Source: a virus
Length of the DNA stretch: 23,864 nt
Direction: 5' to 3' (one strand)
Virus genome (UHGV): UHGV-1462696
A program made the position numbers and the translations under genes. Below, in pieces: positions 101 through 23,654 of the stretch (position 1 is the first letter of the stretch; every line of letters begins with the position of its first letter). The notes under the pieces were generated by a model. The model was not told the DNA's origin, did not search any database, and saw only the letters and a program-made list of their open reading frames with translations.

Positions 101-439
101 ATGGCTAAATCAGCAGCAGAGCGCAAAGCCGCTCAGCGCGCTCGGCAGTCCGCCGCCGGTGAGCGCAAAATTGAACTGGTGCTGGATAAGCAGGAGCAGG
201 AAATGCTGGCGCGGAACTGCGCCGCCCGGCGCCCTGGTCGCGATCCATATGAAATGGCCGAGTACATCGCGCTGCTGATCCGCCAGGATGATGCACGTGT
301 GCGCGGGCGTATAAAATCGATCAGCAGAAAACGTTGCGGTAAGTGCGGCGAGAGAGTTCCAGTTAATTCATGCCCGTGTAATGGTGACTCGCAATGCTGG
401 GTGACTAAAGGCTGGCATGAAACGAAATTAATAGTGTGA
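101..439 (+). CDS. Hypothetical small basic protein with C-terminal Cys-rich zinc-ribbon-like motif (CGKCG...CPCNGDSQC)
   Basis: 112-aa ORF with ATG at 101 and AGGA-like SD upstream; Lys/Arg-rich N-terminus, Cys cluster at C-terminus; lies directly upstream of the terminase genes. Function not recognised. Confidence 0.5.
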
Positions 440-447
440 CATGTCAC
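436..447. repeat. Perfect 12-bp palindrome GTGACATGTCAC, copy A, overlapping the stop codon of the 101-439 gene
   Basis: Read directly; identical copies at 3512-3523 and 21231-21242. Confidence 0.9.
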
Positions 448-488: not shown

Positions 489-514
489 GCCGCCAACTAT
501 GGCGGCTTTATTTT
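489..514 (+). terminator. Intrinsic terminator (GCCGCC-aactat-GGCGGC followed by TTTATTTT)
   Basis: 6-bp GC stem, 6-nt loop and T-run read directly; downstream of the 101-439 gene and of palindrome A. Confidence 0.6.
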
Positions 515-1154: not shown

Positions 1155-2626
1155 CAGATACAGCGTTATCTCCTGAAGAGCAGTTAATCGAGGATATTGC
1201 AGGGTTCACTCACGATCCACTTGGATATGCCCTCTATGCGTTCCCGTGGGGGGAAGAGGGGACTGAACTGGCACATGCCACCGGTCCACGTCAGTGGCAG
1301 GCCGATGCGTTCCGAGAGATACGTGATCATTTGCAGAATCCAGAGACGCGCTATCAGCCGCTTATGCTGGCACGTGCTTCTGGTCACGGTATTGGTAAAT
1401 CCGCATTCATCTCAATGCTGATCAACTGGGGCATGTCCACTTGCGAGGATTGTAAGGTCGTGGTGACCGCCAACACCGACAACCAGCTACGAACGAAGAC
1501 CTGGCCGGAAATTATCAAGTGGTCGAACCTTGCTATCACGAAAGACTGGTTTACCTGTACCGCTACCGCGATGTACAGCAATGACCCTGGGCACGACAAG
1601 CGGTGGCGGGCTGACGCAATACCCTGGTCTGAGCACAACACTGAGGCGTTCGCCGGACTACACAACGAGCGCAAACGCATCATCGTGGTGTTTGATGAAG
1701 CGTCGAACATTGCGGATCTGGTGTGGGAAGTTGCCGAGGGGGCGCTTACGGACGAAGACACTGAGATTATCTGGGTGGCGTTCGGAAACCCGACGCGTAA
1801 TACCGGACGTTTCCGCGAATGTTTCCGCAAATATAAACACCGCTGGAAAACTGCGCAGATTGACAGCCGGACGGTGGAAGGCACTAACAAACAGCAGTTG
1901 CAGAAATGGGTTGATGACTACGGGGAAGACAGCGACTTCGTTAAAATCCGTGTGCGCGGCATATTCCCTGATGCATCTGAATTGCAGTTTATCCCTACCG
2001 GCCTTACTGACGAGGCAATGAAACGGGGGGTAACTGCTGCGCAGGTGGCACATGCTCCGGTGATAATCGGCGTTGACCCGGCATACTCCGGCGTTGATGA
2101 CGCTGTGATATACCTGCGGCAGGGGCTGCACAGTAAGGTGCTGTGGACTGGCAACAAGACCACTGACGATCTGATTATGGCGAAGCGCATCGCTGACTTT
2201 GAAGACCAGTATCAGGCTGACGCGGTATTCATCGACTTCGGTTACGGAACCGGTTTGAAGTCAATCGGTGATGGCTGGGGACGTACATGGCAACTTGTTC
2301 CGTTCGGTGGCGCGTCTACTGACCCGCAGATGCTCAACAAGCGTGGGGAGATGTTCAACTCATGTAAGACATGGCTGAGGCTGGGCGGTATGCTGGATGA
2401 CCAGGAAACAGCGGACGACCTGTCGACGGCAGAGTACAAAGTTCGCGTGGACGGTAAAATCGTTATCGAACCGAAGGAAGATATCAAAGAACGACTTGGG
2501 CGTTCGCCGGGGAAAGGCGATGCGCTATTGCTGACGTTTGCTTTCCCTGTGTCGAAGCGCCTGCGAATTCCCGGTCAGCAGAACCAGCAAGGCAAGGCCA
2601 TCACAGATTACGACCCGTTTGCGTGA
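1151..2626 (+). CDS. terL: Terminase large subunit (ATPase plus nuclease)
   Basis: 491 aa; Walker A-like ARASGHGIGKS, Walker B-like IIVVFDEAS, C-terminal RNaseH-like nuclease segment (VIIGVDPAYSG); GTG start overlapping terS stop (GTGA). Confidence 0.88.
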   Translation: MTDTALSPEEQLIEDIAGFTHDPLGYALYAFPWGEEGTELAHATGPRQWQADAFREIRDHLQNPETRYQPLMLARASGHGIGKSAFISMLINWGMSTCEDCKVVVTANTDNQLRTKTWPEIIKWSNLAITKDWFTCTATAMYSNDPGHDKRWRADAIPWSEHNTEAFAGLHNERKRIIVVFDEASNIADLVWEVAEGALTDEDTEIIWVAFGNPTRNTGRFRECFRKYKHRWKTAQIDSRTVEGTNKQQLQKWVDDYGEDSDFVKIRVRGIFPDASELQFIPTGLTDEAMKRGVTAAQVAHAPVIIGVDPAYSGVDDAVIYLRQGLHSKVLWTGNKTTDDLIMAKRIADFEDQYQADAVFIDFGYGTGLKSIGDGWGRTWQLVPFGGASTDPQMLNKRGEMFNSCKTWLRLGGMLDDQETADDLSTAEYKVRVDGKIVIEPKEDIKERLGRSPGKGDALLLTFAFPVSKRLRIPGQQNQQGKAITDYDPFA

Positions 2627-2627
2627 T

Positions 2628-3368
2628 TTATTGCTTATTTTTCACGGCTTCAGCAATCATTCTCTCAGCCTGTGATGTATATGTTTTTCGCAAGGGTTCA
2701 TGGCCCATATGCAATACGATACTTTCCTTTTCTTTTTCCTTTAATTCTTGTATGAGATTATTTATTTTGGCCTCCCTATCTTCAAGCATTCTGGCGGACT
2801 TTTCTGCCTCAATCTTTAACGCTGCAGCCACTGATTGCATGTTTTCCAGCTTCTTATTCAATTCCAAAACCTTATCGGAGAGCCTATCTCTTTCCGACGT
2901 TAGCTCACCCATCCTGGCCTGTGACTCCGTAATTCTTTCCTTCATAGCCTGTATGTCTTTTTCGGCGCCAGTCTTAACTTTGTCGTATGTCACATCGTGC
3001 TTTGCCTTCAGGCGCTGCAGGCGTGTGGCGCGATGAATGCGCTTGGCCTTCCGGTGGTTCTCTATCGAATCGTAATTATCAAGAGGTTTGGCTTGCCACT
3101 TTGAAATCACGTTGTTGATCCAGGGCATGCCGCCGCACAGGATTATTGCTGAAACACATGGGAATGCTAATACCGTTTTCCAACTGCTATTGCTGGAAAT
3201 GTAGGTGATCTTGTCGATGATGCTGGAGTCGCTGAGGAGTAAGTATAAAATCGACTTCCAGTTAAAGGCGCACCATGACAGTGCGAACGCTCCAAACACT
3301 GGATTTCTGACCCTTTGCGCAGCGGTATTAACGGTTGAAGATAGGTATTCTTTAAGTGATTCAAGCAT
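2628..3368 (-). CDS. Membrane-anchored coiled-coil protein of unknown function (accessory; candidate abortive-infection / superinfection-exclusion effector)
   Basis: 246 aa; two hydrophobic segments in the N-terminal ~90 aa (FGAFALSWCAFNWKSILYLLL; VLAFPCVSAIILCGGMPWI) followed by ~130 aa of heptad-like charged sequence; AT-rich relative to flanks by eye; AAGGG SD upstream of ATG at 3368; opposite strand to the late operon. Confidence 0.6.
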   Translation of the reverse strand: MLESLKEYLSSTVNTAAQRVRNPVFGAFALSWCAFNWKSILYLLLSDSSIIDKITYISSNSSWKTVLAFPCVSAIILCGGMPWINNVISKWQAKPLDNYDSIENHRKAKRIHRATRLQRLKAKHDVTYDKVKTGAEKDIQAMKERITESQARMGELTSERDRLSDKVLELNKKLENMQSVAAALKIEAEKSARMLEDREAKINNLIQELKEKEKESIVLHMGHEPLRKTYTSQAERMIAEAVKNKQ

Positions 3369-3398
3369 GTCCAGGCCCTTTTAGGTTTTTTTCTGATT

Positions 3399-3413
3399 CT
3401 ACCTTTAAGGTAA
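3399..3413. promoter_or_regulatory. TTACC-N5-GGTAA-type palindrome (CTACC-TTTAA-GGTAA) in the promoter of the 246-aa gene
   Basis: 31-45 nt upstream of the ATG at 3368; on the gene strand the site reads TTACCTTAAAGGTAGAAT, so the -10-like TAGAAT overlaps it. Confidence 0.5.
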
Positions 3414-3480
3414 TCTTCGGTCATTATGAAAAACGTATCCCTATGAGGGGATAATGTCGTTGATATCCTCTGATGAGGAT

Positions 3481-3506
3481 AAAACAAAGCCAGCTCATCG
3501 GCTGGC
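3481..3506 (-). terminator. Intrinsic terminator on minus strand (GCCAGC-cgatga-GCTGGC followed by TTTGTTTT)
   Basis: Read directly; immediately downstream of palindrome B and the stop of the 3528-3899 gene. Confidence 0.6.
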
Positions 3507-3511
3507 TGTTT

Positions 3512-3523
3512 GTGACATGTCAC
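3512..3523. repeat. Perfect 12-bp palindrome GTGACATGTCAC, copy B
   Basis: Read directly; 5 nt after the stop codon (3528-3530, minus strand) of the 123-aa gene. Confidence 0.9.
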
Positions 3524-3527
3524 GGTG

Positions 3528-3899
3528 TTATTGCTCGCTTAGCTTCTGCTTCAGCAAGTAACCTTCGAGCATCCAGATTTTGTTTACAGCATTCTGCCGG
3601 GCAATCTTCCGACCAATTTCTGCATCAAAGTTTTCATGGCTTGCACAGGCGCTTTCTCCGGTTACAGTAAATCCGTTGCGCAGCACCAGAACGCAGAAGG
3701 TCAGCAGAGAAAGTGATTCGTGCGGCTGGTAGTTTACCTCTCCGCCAGTATGTTTCGCTTTTATGGCTTTGCCAAAGGCACCATCTTCTGCTGTGAAATA
3801 TGCCTCCTGAGCAATAATGCCTTCGATATGGTCTGGCGTAACGCGCGGTGCCGTTTTGCCTTTCTCAACGATTTCTTTTTCGATTTGCTTGTCGTTCAT
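3528..3899 (-). CDS. Hypothetical small phage protein (possibly Gp49-like family)
   Basis: 123 aa; strong SD AAGGTGA 4-5 nt before ATG at 3899; central motif CVLVLRNGFTVTGESACASHENFD resembles small conserved phage proteins; family assignment is from memory only. Confidence 0.55.
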   Translation of the reverse strand: MNDKQIEKEIVEKGKTAPRVTPDHIEGIIAQEAYFTAEDGAFGKAIKAKHTGGEVNYQPHESLSLLTFCVLVLRNGFTVTGESACASHENFDAEIGRKIARQNAVNKIWMLEGYLLKQKLSEQ

Positions 3900-4097: not shown

Positions 4098-4174
4098 TGG
4101 CGTGGCATGCAGGATTCGAACCTGCGACCAACCGCTTAGAAGGCGGTTGCTCTGTCCAACTGAGCTAATGCCAC
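4098..4174 (-). tRNA. tRNA-Arg (anticodon UCU), phage-encoded
   Basis: Reverse complement gives a 77-nt cloverleaf: acceptor GTGGCAT/ATGCCAC, D-arm GCTC-AGTTGGACA-GAGC, anticodon stem ACCGC/GCGGT with loop CTTCTAA (anticodon TCT), T-arm GCAGG-TTCGAAT-CCTGC, discriminator G, encoded CCA. Confidence 0.85.
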
Positions 4175-4496
4175 AACGCTGAGAGCACTTAGCCTGTTAA
4201 GGCGCCACACTTTGTCGCGGCTCCATAAATGCTCTCATCGTTGTACCCTCGTCTCTTCCGAGGCGTCACACCGAATCGCCGGGATGGTGAATCCCCGTGC
4301 GCGGAATAAAACCGCTCGACTTGCACATTCCGGCTACCTGGTTCGTTTGCCCGAGCAAGGGAGGGTGTCCCTTAAACGTATCCAGACCGCTATCGGCGCA
4401 TGTGCCATACGCCGTACTGCTCAAAATAAAAGCTCACTCCACCTGTTCAATTTAACGACAAGCCAGTCAGGTTAATAACCGGAATGAACCCTTTAC

Positions 4497-4511
4497 TTAC
4501 CTGAAAGGTAA
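4497..4511. promoter_or_regulatory. TTACC-TGAAA-GGTAA palindrome (17-mer identical to the site at 23536) in the divergent region between the tRNA and the portal module
   Basis: Read directly; 91 nt upstream of the ATG at 4602. Confidence 0.55.
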
Positions 4512-4601
4512 TAATTTGTGCGTTAAATGTCAACTTCCTACGATAAATAAATCATATGTGGTTAAATTGGTAATAATTTAATTGCGTACGGAGTCATTGA
4601 T

Positions 4602-6502: not shown

Positions 6503-6795
6503 CAGATTACGAAGACGATCAACTGAAAGAAGAAAACGCCCGTAAGCAACGTGACATGGCACAGCGTGAAATTGATGACATTCGCTTTGTCATGAGCAGT
6601 GAACAGGGGCGTCGGGTTGTCTGGTCGGTACTGGAGAAAGGCCGTGTGTTTTCCGCTATCTCGCCGATGGACGCTATGGCAATGGCATTTAATGAGGGGC
6701 AACGCAATCTGGCGCTGGAACTGTTTCAGCGCGTTATGGCGCATTGCCCTGAACAGTATTTGAAGATGGCCAAAGAGGCCAGTGAACAGGAGTGA
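6499..6795 (+). CDS. Hypothetical protein (98 aa) between portal and scaffold
   Basis: ATGA start/stop overlap with portal, consistent with translational coupling. Confidence 0.55.
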   Translation: MTDYEDDQLKEENARKQRDMAQREIDDIRFVMSSEQGRRVVWSVLEKGRVFSAISPMDAMAMAFNEGQRNLALELFQRVMAHCPEQYLKMAKEASEQE

Positions 6796-20668: not shown

Positions 20669-21229
20669 ATGAAGGCAATTATATTTTTTGTTTCAATATT
20701 GATGTCTGCATTTTCTTTTGCAGGGCAAAATGTTAAATGCGAACTTCAATACTTTGGAGATAACGATAAATTTAAGGTAACTCAGTTTTCTTTTATGGGG
20801 ATTCCATCTGATTCATACCTTTATACCTGTGCCGACTGTGGAGGCATCCAGATAAACGTGTTCCCATCTATTCAGACTGTTGCTTCCTACTCATTTGAAA
20901 ACAACATTGATTTCGAAAGGAAAATCAATGCTGAATACAACAGAAAAGACATAGCTAAACTTGAGATGGAAAACGTTACTCAAGGCGGGAGAATAAAATA
21001 TTCAATCACCGATACTGGTTTGGCAGAGTTTTACCCAGAGGGCAAAAAGATAAGCTACCTCTACTTTTTAGCCAAGCAACAAAATGGTAAAGAACAAGTA
21101 GGTTATTCAGGATTTGTTACCTCTAACGGGGATAAGTCATGCTCAATTATTGCGACATATCCAGGAAAAGAAATTTCTTTTCTGGGAAGTAAATCTTTAA
21201 GCTACTTTATGAATCATATATCAATGTAG
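20669..21229 (+). CDS. Secreted or periplasmic hypothetical protein (moron)
   Basis: Signal peptide MKAIIFFVSILMSAFSFA then GQN, no lipobox; strongly AT-rich codon usage unlike the flanking virion genes; starts 2 nt after the upstream stop, so likely co-transcribed with late genes. Confidence 0.6.
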   Translation: MKAIIFFVSILMSAFSFAGQNVKCELQYFGDNDKFKVTQFSFMGIPSDSYLYTCADCGGIQINVFPSIQTVASYSFENNIDFERKINAEYNRKDIAKLEMENVTQGGRIKYSITDTGLAEFYPEGKKISYLYFLAKQQNGKEQVGYSGFVTSNGDKSCSIIATYPGKEISFLGSKSLSYFMNHISM

Positions 21230-21230
21230 C

Positions 21231-21242
21231 GTGACATGTCAC
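21231..21242. repeat. Perfect 12-bp palindrome GTGACATGTCAC, copy C
   Basis: Read directly; 2 nt after the stop of the 186-aa gene and immediately before a terminator. Confidence 0.9.
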
Positions 21243-21266
21243 AGGCCGCTTTCGCGGCCTTGTTTT
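21243..21266 (+). terminator. Intrinsic terminator (AGGCCGC-tttc-GCGGCCT followed by GTTTTT) ending the + strand late transcript
   Basis: Read directly. Confidence 0.7.
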
Positions 21267-21304: not shown

Positions 21305-21329
21305 CACAAAAAAGCCCGCAACGCGGGCT
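21305..21329 (-). terminator. Intrinsic terminator on minus strand (AGCCCGC-gtt-GCGGGCT followed by TTTTTTGT), overlapping the stop of the YafO-like gene
   Basis: Read from the reverse complement. Confidence 0.6.
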
Positions 21330-21874
21330 TATTCCTTCCATTTATCAGAAAAAAGATCTTCTTCTAAAGGCATTGGTTCTGTTTTTGTTTTCTCAAAGAA
21401 TTGATAACTGATAGTGATTGCTTCCTCTTTAAACTCTTCTTGCTCAGTTATGTTGTGGGCATCTGCGTCAACAAAAAACATAACCAGCGCATCACGATTG
21501 TGATTTACCGAATAAACTAAAAAGCAATCACTTGTTGGTATGCATTTTACTTGCACAGACGCTATATTTTTCCATGCATCCCAAGATGATTTTTTACCAG
21601 TGTGTTTTTTATCACTATCTTCTGGAATATAGTCTTGGTTATCGACATGAGTATGCCTGACATTTAGTTTAAGCATTTCTGTCGGACGAGCAAATGCAGC
21701 ATCTTTACCAAGAGATGGATGGTATCCCGTTTTCCAATACTGGGTAAAGGCATCAGATACTTTCTTCAGCTCAAGATCAGATGCACAAAGGGCCGAGAAA
21801 TTTTGCGTATGCAATACTCGACCCTTATATCTGACAATTTGATTTTTATCATTCTGCGACGCAGACGAACTCAT
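21329..21874 (-). CDS. YafO-like toxin candidate (ribosome-dependent mRNA interferase family) with acidic C-terminal tail
   Basis: Motifs FTQYWKTGYHPSLGKDAAF, NVRHTHV and CFLVYSVNHNRDALVMFFVDADAH parallel YafO segments as recalled (FISYKRDGVLPDIFGRDALY; VAHIHL; AHLVYCQGAFDEQAWLLIAILKPEPH); AT-rich; AAGGA SD before ATG at 21874; the track ORF extends to 21901. Confidence 0.5.
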   Translation of the reverse strand: MSSSASQNDKNQIVRYKGRVLHTQNFSALCASDLELKKVSDAFTQYWKTGYHPSLGKDAAFARPTEMLKLNVRHTHVDNQDYIPEDSDKKHTGKKSSWDAWKNIASVQVKCIPTSDCFLVYSVNHNRDALVMFFVDADAHNITEQEEFKEEAITISYQFFEKTKTEPMPLEEDLFSDKWKE

Positions 21875-22028
21875 AATTTTCCTTATTGTTACGAGAATCA
21901 AAGAAAGCTCGGGATACGCGACTTGCGTGATCTTTTGTCATAGTAACTTTTACGTACTCTACGCTTCCATTGAAAGAACGTCTTGCGGCAGCTTGCGCTC
22001 TACGCATCTGCAATTTTTCGTTTCGCAT
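21849..22028 (-). CDS. Small basic ORF (59 aa, below the track cutoff); candidate antitoxin or regulator
   Basis: Hand-translated from the reverse complement: MRNEKLQMRRAQAAARRSFNGSVEYVKVTMTKDHASRVSRAFFDSRNNKENYEFVCVAE; GAGG SD 7 nt upstream; overlaps the start of the YafO-like gene by 26 nt in another frame; sigma70-like promoter TTGGTT-17-TGTAAT upstream. Confidence 0.3.
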   Translation of the reverse strand: MRNEKLQMRRAQAAARRSFNGSVEYVKVTMTKDHASRVSRAFFDSRNNKENYEFVCVAE

Positions 22029-22088
22029 GACATTACCTCATATCTCATAAGTTCATTACACGGATTAATAAAAATGAAACCAATCCGT

Positions 22089-22103
22089 TTACCCTTGAGG
22101 TAA
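22089..22103. promoter_or_regulatory. TTACC-CTTGA-GGTAA palindrome adjacent to the predicted promoter of the small-ORF / YafO-like unit
   Basis: Read directly; 61-75 nt upstream of the ATG at 22028. Confidence 0.5.
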
Positions 22104-22175
22104 TAGTACGCTATTCACCCACAGTCTGCAATCTGTACAGAATTATTTAAAGGCACATCCCTGTGCCGCCGCCCG

Positions 22176-22886
22176 TCAGAAGAACCCAGCCTTGTCGTTG
22201 ATGTACTCCGCGTGAGTCTGGATATCACGCAGGCATTTGCTCACACCAACGATGTAGCAAAACATGGTGGTCAGCTCCGCCGCCGCGCCCGATACATCGT
22301 GCCCGTCTTCCTGCAACTGGTTCAGCAAATTCATCAGCAGTGAGTTCTCCGTCAGGCCGAGAACACCAGACGGAGAATGAATCAGACTGCGGTAGCCGGG
22401 CTTCAGTGGGGCACTGTAGGTTTTGTTCTCTATCTTCATTGCCTGCATCACTGCTGATGCTGTGGCGTTGGCTACCTGGTCGGCAACCATCTTTATGCGT
22501 TCTTCCTGCGGGAGCGAGTTTTTAATGTAACTTCCGGTGCGGCGGATCTGAGGAAGAACCTCACCTGTAACCCATTTACGAAAGCGGTAGGGGATAGTGC
22601 CTGGTGTCACCGCATCGCGGCAGCGGAGGATCAGTGTGTAGAGGCCTGACTCGGAGATGATGTTGATCTCTTTTACTCGGCTGTCAAAAATTGCACGATG
22701 TTCATGCCCTATGTTGAACATAGACCTTTCATCATCATCCAGTTTTTCAAGTGCTTGGGTGACGTTTTGGATACGCAGCGCACTACAAACGTCTTGGGCT
22801 ACAAACCATGGTTGGCCATCGATAATGATGGAACGGATAGGGTTAACAGATTCAAATTTGAAGATGGCAGTTTGAGCATTAGCCAT
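22176..22886 (-). CDS. ant: Phage antirepressor-like protein (N-terminal Bro-N domain plus C-terminal Ant-type domain)
   Basis: N-terminal AIFKFESVNPIRSIIIDGQPWFVAQDVCSALRIQNVTQALEKLDDDE is a typical Bro-N signature; ATG at 22886 with GGAG SD is preferred over the GTG at 22901 used by the track. Confidence 0.75.
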   Translation of the reverse strand: MANAQTAIFKFESVNPIRSIIIDGQPWFVAQDVCSALRIQNVTQALEKLDDDERSMFNIGHEHRAIFDSRVKEINIISESGLYTLILRCRDAVTPGTIPYRFRKWVTGEVLPQIRRTGSYIKNSLPQEERIKMVADQVANATASAVMQAMKIENKTYSAPLKPGYRSLIHSPSGVLGLTENSLLMNLLNQLQEDGHDVSGAAAELTTMFCYIVGVSKCLRDIQTHAEYINDKAGFF

Positions 22887-23041
22887 GGTGGTTATCTCCA
22901 CTTAGTGATTTTAATCACCACCGCAACGCCAATTACTGGTGGTGAACTGGACAAGGTTGGCGTACCGGCCTAAGTGGTACCGGCGTCCTTTCGGACCCCT
23001 GCCCAGCCCACCATAATTCGGATATGGCTGTGCTTAACGCA

Positions 23042-23065: not shown

Positions 23066-23155
23066 ATGCGCCACTTAGTAACTCGGGACGCCAATCCCGG
23101 CACTGGATTTTGCCAGTGCCCGATTACTATGGCACAAGAGGAGTGCGATGTAAAT

Positions 23156-23170
23156 TTACCGCAAAGGTAA
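23156..23170. promoter_or_regulatory. TTACC-GCAAA-GGTAA palindrome embedded in the 30-nt loop of a 10-bp inverted repeat (AGAGGAGTGC 23137-23146 / GCACTCCTCT 23177-23186)
   Basis: Read directly. Confidence 0.5.
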
Positions 23171-23201
23171 ATATAAGCACTCCTCTTGGTAATTTCAAAT
23201 C

Positions 23202-23459: not shown

Positions 23460-23535
23460 CTTATCTTCTCCATGTAATAACTGTATATTTATACAGTAGC
23501 AAATAATTTGTTTGCTATCCAGCACGTTTTGCGAA

Positions 23536-23550
23536 TTACCTGAAAGGTAA
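23536..23550. promoter_or_regulatory. TTACC-TGAAA-GGTAA palindrome in the divergent region between the ant paralog and the tail fibre gene
   Basis: 17-mer TTACCTGAAAGGTAATA identical to the site at 4497; 105 nt upstream of the tail fibre ATG. Confidence 0.55.
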
Positions 23551-23654
23551 TATCTGTTCGTATTTATGGGTTATCTATCCATATGTGGTTTTTTAGGTAA
23601 TAGAATGATCGGATATGCGGCGCAACGGGTGCTGCGACTATCTGGAGATTTAAC

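Follow-up and report, generated by a model that had tools for sequence, protein, structure and literature searches.

[quoted passage not shown] The E. coli consensus of matS has been given as GTGACATTGTCAC (PMC8669397). An earlier survey found the 13-bp matS to be absent from 500 prophages, and the authors argued that prophages avoid it (PMC3603311). However, a 12-bp relative would not have been counted in that survey, in which only the 13-bp motif was searched (PMC3603311).

Here, we describe such a 12-bp relative in a stretch of 23,864 nucleotides (UHGV virus genome UHGV-1462696), hereafter called the window. The window is from an epsilon15-like (Uetakevirus) phage and has its nearest relatives in phiV10, TL-2011b and the O157 typing phages. 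The site is a 12-bp palindrome, GTGACATGTCAC, whose half-sites are identical to those of host matS (GTGACRNYGTCAC) and which has one central base fewer, so that the E. coli consensus differs from it by a single central T. In length and spacing it is distinct from matS, having 12 bp and a 2-nt spacer where matS has 13 bp and a 3-nt spacer. Moreover, matS sits in the chromosomal Ter region, whereas the phage site is present on the genomes of four lineages of phages, at gene ends.

Copies of the palindrome in the window

Exactly three exact copies of the palindrome are present in the window, at positions 436–447, 3512–3523 and 21231–21242, and not one copy arose in any of 100 dinucleotide-preserving shuffles of the window. 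This confirms the count of an earlier note on this DNA, which had regarded the repetition as non-random. The first copy contains the TGA stop codon (437–439) of a plus-strand ORF of 112 amino acids (101–439, phrog_536), a homologue of epsilon15 gp49 and phiV10 p55 that lies directly before terS and encodes the presumed palindrome-binding protein. The second copy is located 4 nt past the stop codon (3528–3530) of a minus-strand gene of the Phage_gp49_66 family (PF13876, 123 aa, 3528–3899), while the third is located 1 nt past the stop codon (21227–21229) of a variable plus-strand gene (phrog_11983, 186 aa, 20669–21229), which is the last gene of the virion operon. Each copy precedes an intrinsic terminator consisting of a hairpin and a T-run. 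These terminators are found at 489–506 (plus strand, 41 nt past copy 1 and upstream of terS), at 3488–3507 (minus strand, 4 nt past copy 2 in the direction of the minus-strand gene) and at 21243–21260 (plus strand, directly adjoining copy 3 with a gap of 0 nt). The placement just past stop codons and before terminators, also described in the earlier note, is thus borne out with distances of 0–4 nt and 0–41 nt, respectively. The longest sequence common to all three copies is the asymmetric 14-mer TGTGACATGTCACG, which is on the minus strand at site 3, in agreement with the view that the palindrome is a discrete site and not part of a duplicated segment. A copy with one mismatch (GTGACATGGCAC) lies within coding sequence at 6551–6562, and the same variant is also present in phiV10 and TL-2011b. 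The 112-aa gene had been taken for a loose accessory 'moron', but it is the conserved final gene of the early-right operon in epsilon15-like phages.

Several other identities of the palindrome were considered and rejected. It is not itself an intrinsic terminator, as its folding energy is only −1.2 kcal/mol and it lacks a T-run, the true terminators being the neighbouring hairpins. It is also not a promoter; GTGACA is weakly −35-like at sites 1 and 3, but the −10 partners fall in non-conserved flanks. The phiV10 record starts inside the palindrome only because it was opened after the stop codon of the last gene, which does not make the palindrome a genome end, and in ZF40, P2-like and N15-like phages the palindrome lies far from the terminase genes, against a pac or cos site. 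Finally, the annotated operators of the epsilon15 repressor are ATTACC-N5-GGTAAT, which is another motif. This operator motif has nine matches in the window with up to two mismatches, where 0.6 are expected. Copies of it are located at 525–541, 543–559, 3398–3414, 4496–4512, 22088–22104, 23155–23171 and 23535–23551, a short way ahead of terS, the head gene block and the tailspike region, as though each late unit opened with an operator.

Some other features surround the three sites. The region from the end of terL to the site-2 terminator (2626–3470) is about 800 bp long in the window, in contrast to 30–75 nt in phiV10 and epsilon15. It contains a 137-aa ORF (2623–3036) without any family match and a long minus-strand ORF, and looks like an insertion. 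On the other side of site 2, a tRNA-Arg gene (anticodon TCT; 4098–4174, minus strand) is situated between the Phage_gp49_66 gene and the head genes, and the same tRNA-Arg is annotated in typing phage 9 and phiv142-3. A YafO-like toxin-family gene (21329–21901, minus strand) and a Bro-N antirepressor-type gene (22176–22901, minus strand) converge on site 3 from the right, each with its own terminator (21330–21312, minus strand).

The palindrome in epsilon15-like phages

In epsilon15 (positions 2142, 19517 and 39612) and Tyrion (2702, 20377 and 41755), the palindrome occupies all three syntenic places. Both phiV10 and typing phage 9 have it intact at two of these places and with one substitution at the third. 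The substituted copy is the one at the gp49 stop codon and reads GTGACATGTTAC (L001 junction 39104/1 in phiV10 and L004:33969 in typing phage 9). TL-2011b has the palindrome at two of the three places; a copy was looked for at its site 2 and was not found. At site 2, epsilon15, phiV10 and Tyrion all have the syntenic copy, and 52 of 75 epsilon15-like loci, picked by protein similarity only, carry the site-2 palindrome.

At site 3, the left flank varies between phages and the palindrome with the terminator on its right is conserved. The gene on the left is an unrelated ORF in each of phiV10, epsilon15, TL-2011b and Tyrion. Analysis of IMG/VR reveals at least 12 different ORFs that end 0–7 nt from a palindrome-terminator unit of the site-3 type, and at least 7 different ORFs end with TAA plus 4 nt at a unit of the site-2 type. 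The palindrome therefore coincides with mosaic junctions in epsilon15-like phages, and to this extent the suggestion of the earlier note that it marks the boundaries of acquired cassettes holds. However, marking boundaries is not its defining property. Copies in other lineages are located inside coding regions (in a cII-like gene, in a replicase gene and in ZF40 gp08) or between translationally adjacent genes, and lambdoid phages that carry a cassette homologous to the site-2 gene (gene-66 type) have no palindrome after that gene.

Linkage to the gp49 gene family

Scanning of IMG/VR with the 14-mer returned many matches exactly at the 3' ends of gp49-like genes whose sequences are quite different. 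A similar scan of species genomes gave mostly chance matches across all phyla, with 4 of 120 at the ends of gp49-family genes. We examined the linkage in loci gathered by protein similarity alone, using as queries the window protein, ZF40 gp22 (68% identical), Yersinia P2-like gp13 (45%) and phiKO2 gp45 (39%). These loci cover epsilon15-like podoviruses, ZF40-like myoviruses, Yersinia P2-like phages and N15/phiKO2-like phages.

The window palindrome is one form of a more general inverted repeat, GTGAC-N2-GTCAC. When each combination of C-terminus and 3' context is counted once, the four unrelated lineages have 122 gene ends, of which 110 carry this repeat. It either overlaps the stop codon of the gp49-family gene or starts 2–10 nt past it. 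When the stop codon is TGA, it forms bases 2–4 of the repeat and the codon before it is GTG, GCG, TTG, CTG or ATG, always ending in G. When the stop codon is TAA or TAG, the intact repeat is displaced 2–10 nt downstream, as in ZF40, which reads TAA-TT-GTGACATGTCAC. Because the repeat remains intact in this displaced position, it is not a by-product of coding. It is also intact though the proteins are only 39–68% identical (45–57% in the IMG/VR and species-genome loci). A terminator next to the repeat is a feature of the epsilon15 lineage only.

The genes around the gp49-family gene are wholly different between the lineages, and the sequence just past the gene-end repeat falls into several unrelated classes, leaving the gp49-family gene as the sole constant partner of the site. 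The other 12 of the 122 gene ends are without the site, and it was not found at the Vibrio and Aeromonas homologues of the family. Across the gp49-family gene ends, the half-sites never vary but the centre does. The epsilon15/ZF40 type has AT there, the P2-like type GC and the N15-like type TG, and a few further variants exist.

Two further features were noticed next to the gene-end sites. In Yersinia P2-like phages (L207:7295-7350, L260-L304), the gene-end site TTGTGACGCGTCACAA is followed 25–35 nt on by an extra half-site, GTGTGACG or GCGTCACAA. In six other loci (L173, L176, L198, L233, L236 and L245), a near-consensus promoter (TTGACT-17-TATACT) is present right after the palindrome, about 10–60 nt past the gp49-family stop codon. 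A perfect LexA-type box (TACTGTTTAAATATACAGT) overlaps with this promoter, so that SOS control is probable for the gene which follows the site in these six loci.

Spacing specificity and dispersed copies

The repeat with a 2-nt spacer occurs in 134, 83, 58 and 108 copies in the four groups (383 in total, in 3.9 Mb of loci), where about one copy per group is expected, although these raw counts include many close relatives and hence overstate the number of independent events. All other spacings of 0–7 nt, as well as the reversed arrangement of the half-sites, have only 0–3 copies in the same 3.9 Mb. GTGAC-N3-GTCAC is present in 0 copies in the window and in the 3.9 Mb of related loci, and single half-sites show no enrichment in the related loci. 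Lambda and P22, which are without a gp49-family gene, are also without the site, this gene-less control comprising two genomes of about 90 kb.

Three copies each are present in epsilon15, Tyrion, ZF40 and phiKO2. The extra copies of ZF40-like phages lie within the cII-like gene and gp08, and those of phiKO2 within the replicase gene and upstream of the icd/ant operon. Where copies are situated in coding regions, the repeat stays intact and its flanks diverge.

Exact palindromes were also seen within cII-like genes (L020, L029, L036, L055, L118 and L206:7622) and at the start of a Q-like gene (L011, L016, L021, L073, L114 and L123). These copies belong to conserved coding sequence of lambdoid and ZF40-like phages and encode R/C-D-M-S. 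It is possible that they are genuine target sites, because L029, L036 and L073 also hold a gp49-family gene. In phage contigs of high G+C content (L023:10760-10860, L042:740-800, L071:1885-1960 and L109:10810-10900), the 14-mer is embedded in dense arrays of GTCAC(G)/GTGAC half-sites, which are located inside replication-protein-like genes and may be iteron arrays. In L042 and L071, the array follows a stretch encoding a basic motif (…RERKRRQRERE…) which resembles the N-terminus of the gp49 family.

The gp49-family protein

PHROGs labels phrog_536 as 'transcriptional regulator'. The gp49 protein gave nothing significant in Pfam, NCBIfam, PDB sequence or PDB profile searches; a match to Mobilization_B was below the threshold (E = 0.18). 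The family consists of 191 clusters at 50% identity, and its members nearly always stand alone with a length of 105–130 amino acids. Alignment of the family reveals a basic, arginine-rich N-terminal helix with invariant R8 and R13, a core of G-x-x-K-I-E-L-x-L, a helix and then RRPGR-x-PY-x-x-x-EYI-x-LLIR, and a Cys-rich tail in which C79, C82 and C99 are invariant. The predicted beta-alpha-alpha core weakly suggests a ribbon-helix-helix fold carrying a Cys-rich tail, though no ribbon-helix-helix family model matched gp49. The putative beta-strand motif partitions with the central dinucleotide of the site, in three clades only. HNH and bZIP readings of the protein were rejected, as the respective motifs are not conserved across the family alignment.

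Proposed role of the site and alternatives

The site is real, under selection, specific in its spacing and genetically linked to the gp49 family. On the strength of these sequence comparisons, we consider it somewhat probable that the palindrome is the cognate DNA binding site of the phage's own gp49-family protein and that it marks the ends of operons in this phage. Among the three options raised in the earlier note, a protein-binding site is accordingly the one favoured by the gene-family linkage, the single spacing and the invariant half-sites. Invariant half-sites around a variable centre are the signature that base-specific recognition of two half-sites in duplex DNA by a symmetric dimer would leave. 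We infer that gp49 is the binding protein, and the effect of binding is proposed as follows.

The protein encoded at 101–439 would bind GTGAC-N2-GTCAC as a symmetric dimer. One copy is fixed where the gene for this protein ends, and the others are dispersed and would form a small set of targets. In the window, the three copies are situated at the 3' ends of three transcription units, upstream of their terminators, namely the early-right operon that ends with gp49, the leftward gene by terL and the virion operon. As each of these three units ends with a copy followed by a terminator, the bound protein might act on transcription at these boundaries as a roadblock or insulator, so as to limit read-through among early genes, late genes and accessory genes of the opposite orientation. 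Bound over the gp49 stop codon, it might in addition provide negative feedback by truncating the gp49 transcript, in analogy to the operator at the end of lacI. This proposed effect on transcription is the weakest step of the explanation because the extra copies in other lineages are not at terminators. Because copies next to terminators are confined to the epsilon15 lineage, the site may in general do something other than act as a boundary or roadblock. It is also unusual for a repressor to bind at the 3' end of the gene that encodes it.

The variation that points to a DNA-binding dimer also bears on whether the element could act in RNA, as a 3'-UTR hairpin or a protein-binding RNA site that influences translation termination or the 3'-end formation or stability of mRNA. 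In the window, mRNAs carry each of the three copies at their 3' ends just before a terminator, one copy overlaps a stop codon, and the N-terminus of the protein is arginine-rich. However, when folded as RNA the 12-mer yields a stem of 4 bp with only −1.2 kcal/mol, which is no better than its shuffles (z = −0.03). The would-be stem is invariant at the gp49-family gene ends, the centre varies and there are no compensatory changes, which is opposite to the covariation of a hairpin. Because of this pattern, we regard the element as a DNA site for a symmetric dimer and not as an RNA hairpin. Copies of other lineages in coding regions and upstream of promoters add to this, and the 3'-end processing or stability element considered in the earlier note is therefore very improbable. 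A signal for recombination or module exchange, at which accessory cassettes are swapped, would account for the unrelated left flanks of site 3 beside a conserved palindrome and terminator, for the many ORFs ending at site-3-type (at least 12) and site-2-type (at least 7) units, and for the several unrelated classes of sequence past the gp49 copy. Ordinary recombination together with selection would keep a functional site at such junctions, however, and explains these ORF ends equally well. No recombinase is associated with the site, the sole integrase being a P4-type attP integrase, while copies of other lineages reside in conserved coding regions without a mosaic junction and the gene-66 cassette is found elsewhere without the palindrome. 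We thus disfavour recombination of cassettes at this site and judge it unlikely. That the site has no function and persists by common descent or chance is harder still to maintain. Many of the compared loci are close relatives, so that raw counts overstate independent events, but the repeat is intact at the gene ends of proteins only 39–68% identical, when displaced from the stop codon and within diverged coding flanks, and its enrichment is exclusive to one spacing. We give this explanation hardly any weight.

A protein of the host might instead bind the site. The half-sites are invariant though the gp49 protein diverges to about 35–45% identity, which would also fit a conserved host binding protein. 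Such a factor could be MatP, the obvious candidate because the half-sites equal those of matS, or another conserved enterobacterial factor, and the phage copies would then serve as decoys or as tethers to the chromosome-organising machinery of the host. The invariance of the half-sites extends across hosts that all have MatP. When one central base pair is taken out, the two half-sites are displaced and turned relative to each other, and a rigid dimer can then usually no longer bind, which speaks against MatP on general grounds. The single central T that separates the palindrome from the E. coli matS consensus speaks for a host protein (PMC3603311, PMC3116907, PMC8669397), whereas not one instance of the true matS spacing (3 nt) is present in 3.9 Mb of these phages, and prophages have been reported to avoid matS (PMC3603311). 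A host protein would also leave the 3'-end linkage to one phage gene family in four unrelated types of phages unexplained, and we find it rather doubtful. A further reading, speculative and of low probability, is that the phages carry a MatP-like system of their own, made of a small ribbon-helix-helix-type protein and a 'matS minus one base' site whose spacing was chosen against binding by host MatP. It could bridge or insulate the sites so as to form early, packaging and virion domains, or disturb the Ter, MukBEF or divisome machinery of the host. Were this true, it would be a counterpart of bacterial macrodomain organisation in temperate Enterobacterales phages of podo-, myo- and siphovirus type.

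If the pairing of the gp49-family protein with the repeat is confirmed, it would provide both a function and a target sequence for a family that has neither (epsilon15 gp49 / N15 gp46-like, phrog_536). It would also show that a small set of target sites is common to temperate phages of very different kinds that infect E. coli, Salmonella, Klebsiella, Yersinia and Pectobacterium, and would explain a conserved operon-end feature of epsilon15-like phages, the late-gene control of which is poorly understood.

Comparison with known systems

Full-text searches of the open literature gave nothing relevant on the 12-mers or on phage sites of a matS-like or MatP-like kind, and several known sites that the palindrome resembles were set aside. 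The LexA box has an AT-rich centre and the consensus CTGT-N8-ACAG. At the corresponding positions, the three window sites have GTGT...ACGA, CCGT...ACAA and GCGT...ACAG, with the centre GACATGTC. In the CRP site, with the consensus TGTGA-N6-TCACA, the two halves are 6 nt apart, but TGTGA and TCACA are separated by only 4 nt in the window sites. The attC site of integrons is a long imperfect palindrome with conserved core sites and IntI nearby, whereas the present site is a perfect 12-bp repeat with copies inside coding regions elsewhere, and no integron integrase is annotated in the relatives of the window. The SopB centromere sites of N15 and phiKO2 are similar in that a few copies of a perfect palindrome are scattered on the phage genome and one phage protein binds them. 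However, the annotated phiKO2 sites (GTGCGACCACGGTCGCAC) differ both in sequence and in position from the GTGAC-TG-GTCAC copies, which excludes identity with these partition sites, and epsilon15-like phages integrate into the chromosome and are without partition genes.

SlmA is a TetR-family host protein and its binding site is GTGAGTACTCAC. Like the phage site, this is a 12-bp palindrome with the same outer GTGA...TCAC, but the inner bases differ at the positions that define SlmA sites (G5/C8 vs C5/G8), and a host protein such as SlmA would leave the linkage to a phage gene unexplained. The outer 4 bp of the SlmA site are common to matS as well (PMC3116907).

Ribbon-helix-helix proteins and their operators (P22 Arc, Mnt, MetJ, CopG and the ParD/TacA-type antitoxins) share with the proposed pairing a small dimeric beta-alpha-alpha protein, which for gp49 is a prediction, and a short symmetric DNA site beside the gene, here at 110 of 122 gene ends. 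They differ in having the operator in the promoter, whereas the gp49 site is at the 3' end of the gene, and gp49 adds an N-terminal basic helix and a C-terminal Cys4-like module. A repressor that binds over the end of its own coding sequence has a precedent in lacI-O3, the operator at the 3' end of the repressor gene, where feedback is combined with gating of downstream transcription. Abo et al. are said to have described in 2000 that roadblocked lacI transcripts lacking a stop codon are tagged by tmRNA. LacI is a helix-turn-helix protein with its main operator downstream at a promoter, however, and roadblocking at the gp49 site is a proposal.

E. coli MatP itself shows no detectable sequence homology to gp49 (hhalign of the family alignments gave a probability of 0.1–0.2%, and there was no Pfam MatP match). 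It has a four-helix bundle and a coiled coil where gp49 has a Cys-rich tail instead. The near-identity of the phage site to host matS raises the question of whether the phages copy, avoid or compete with the organiser of the host chromosome terminus.
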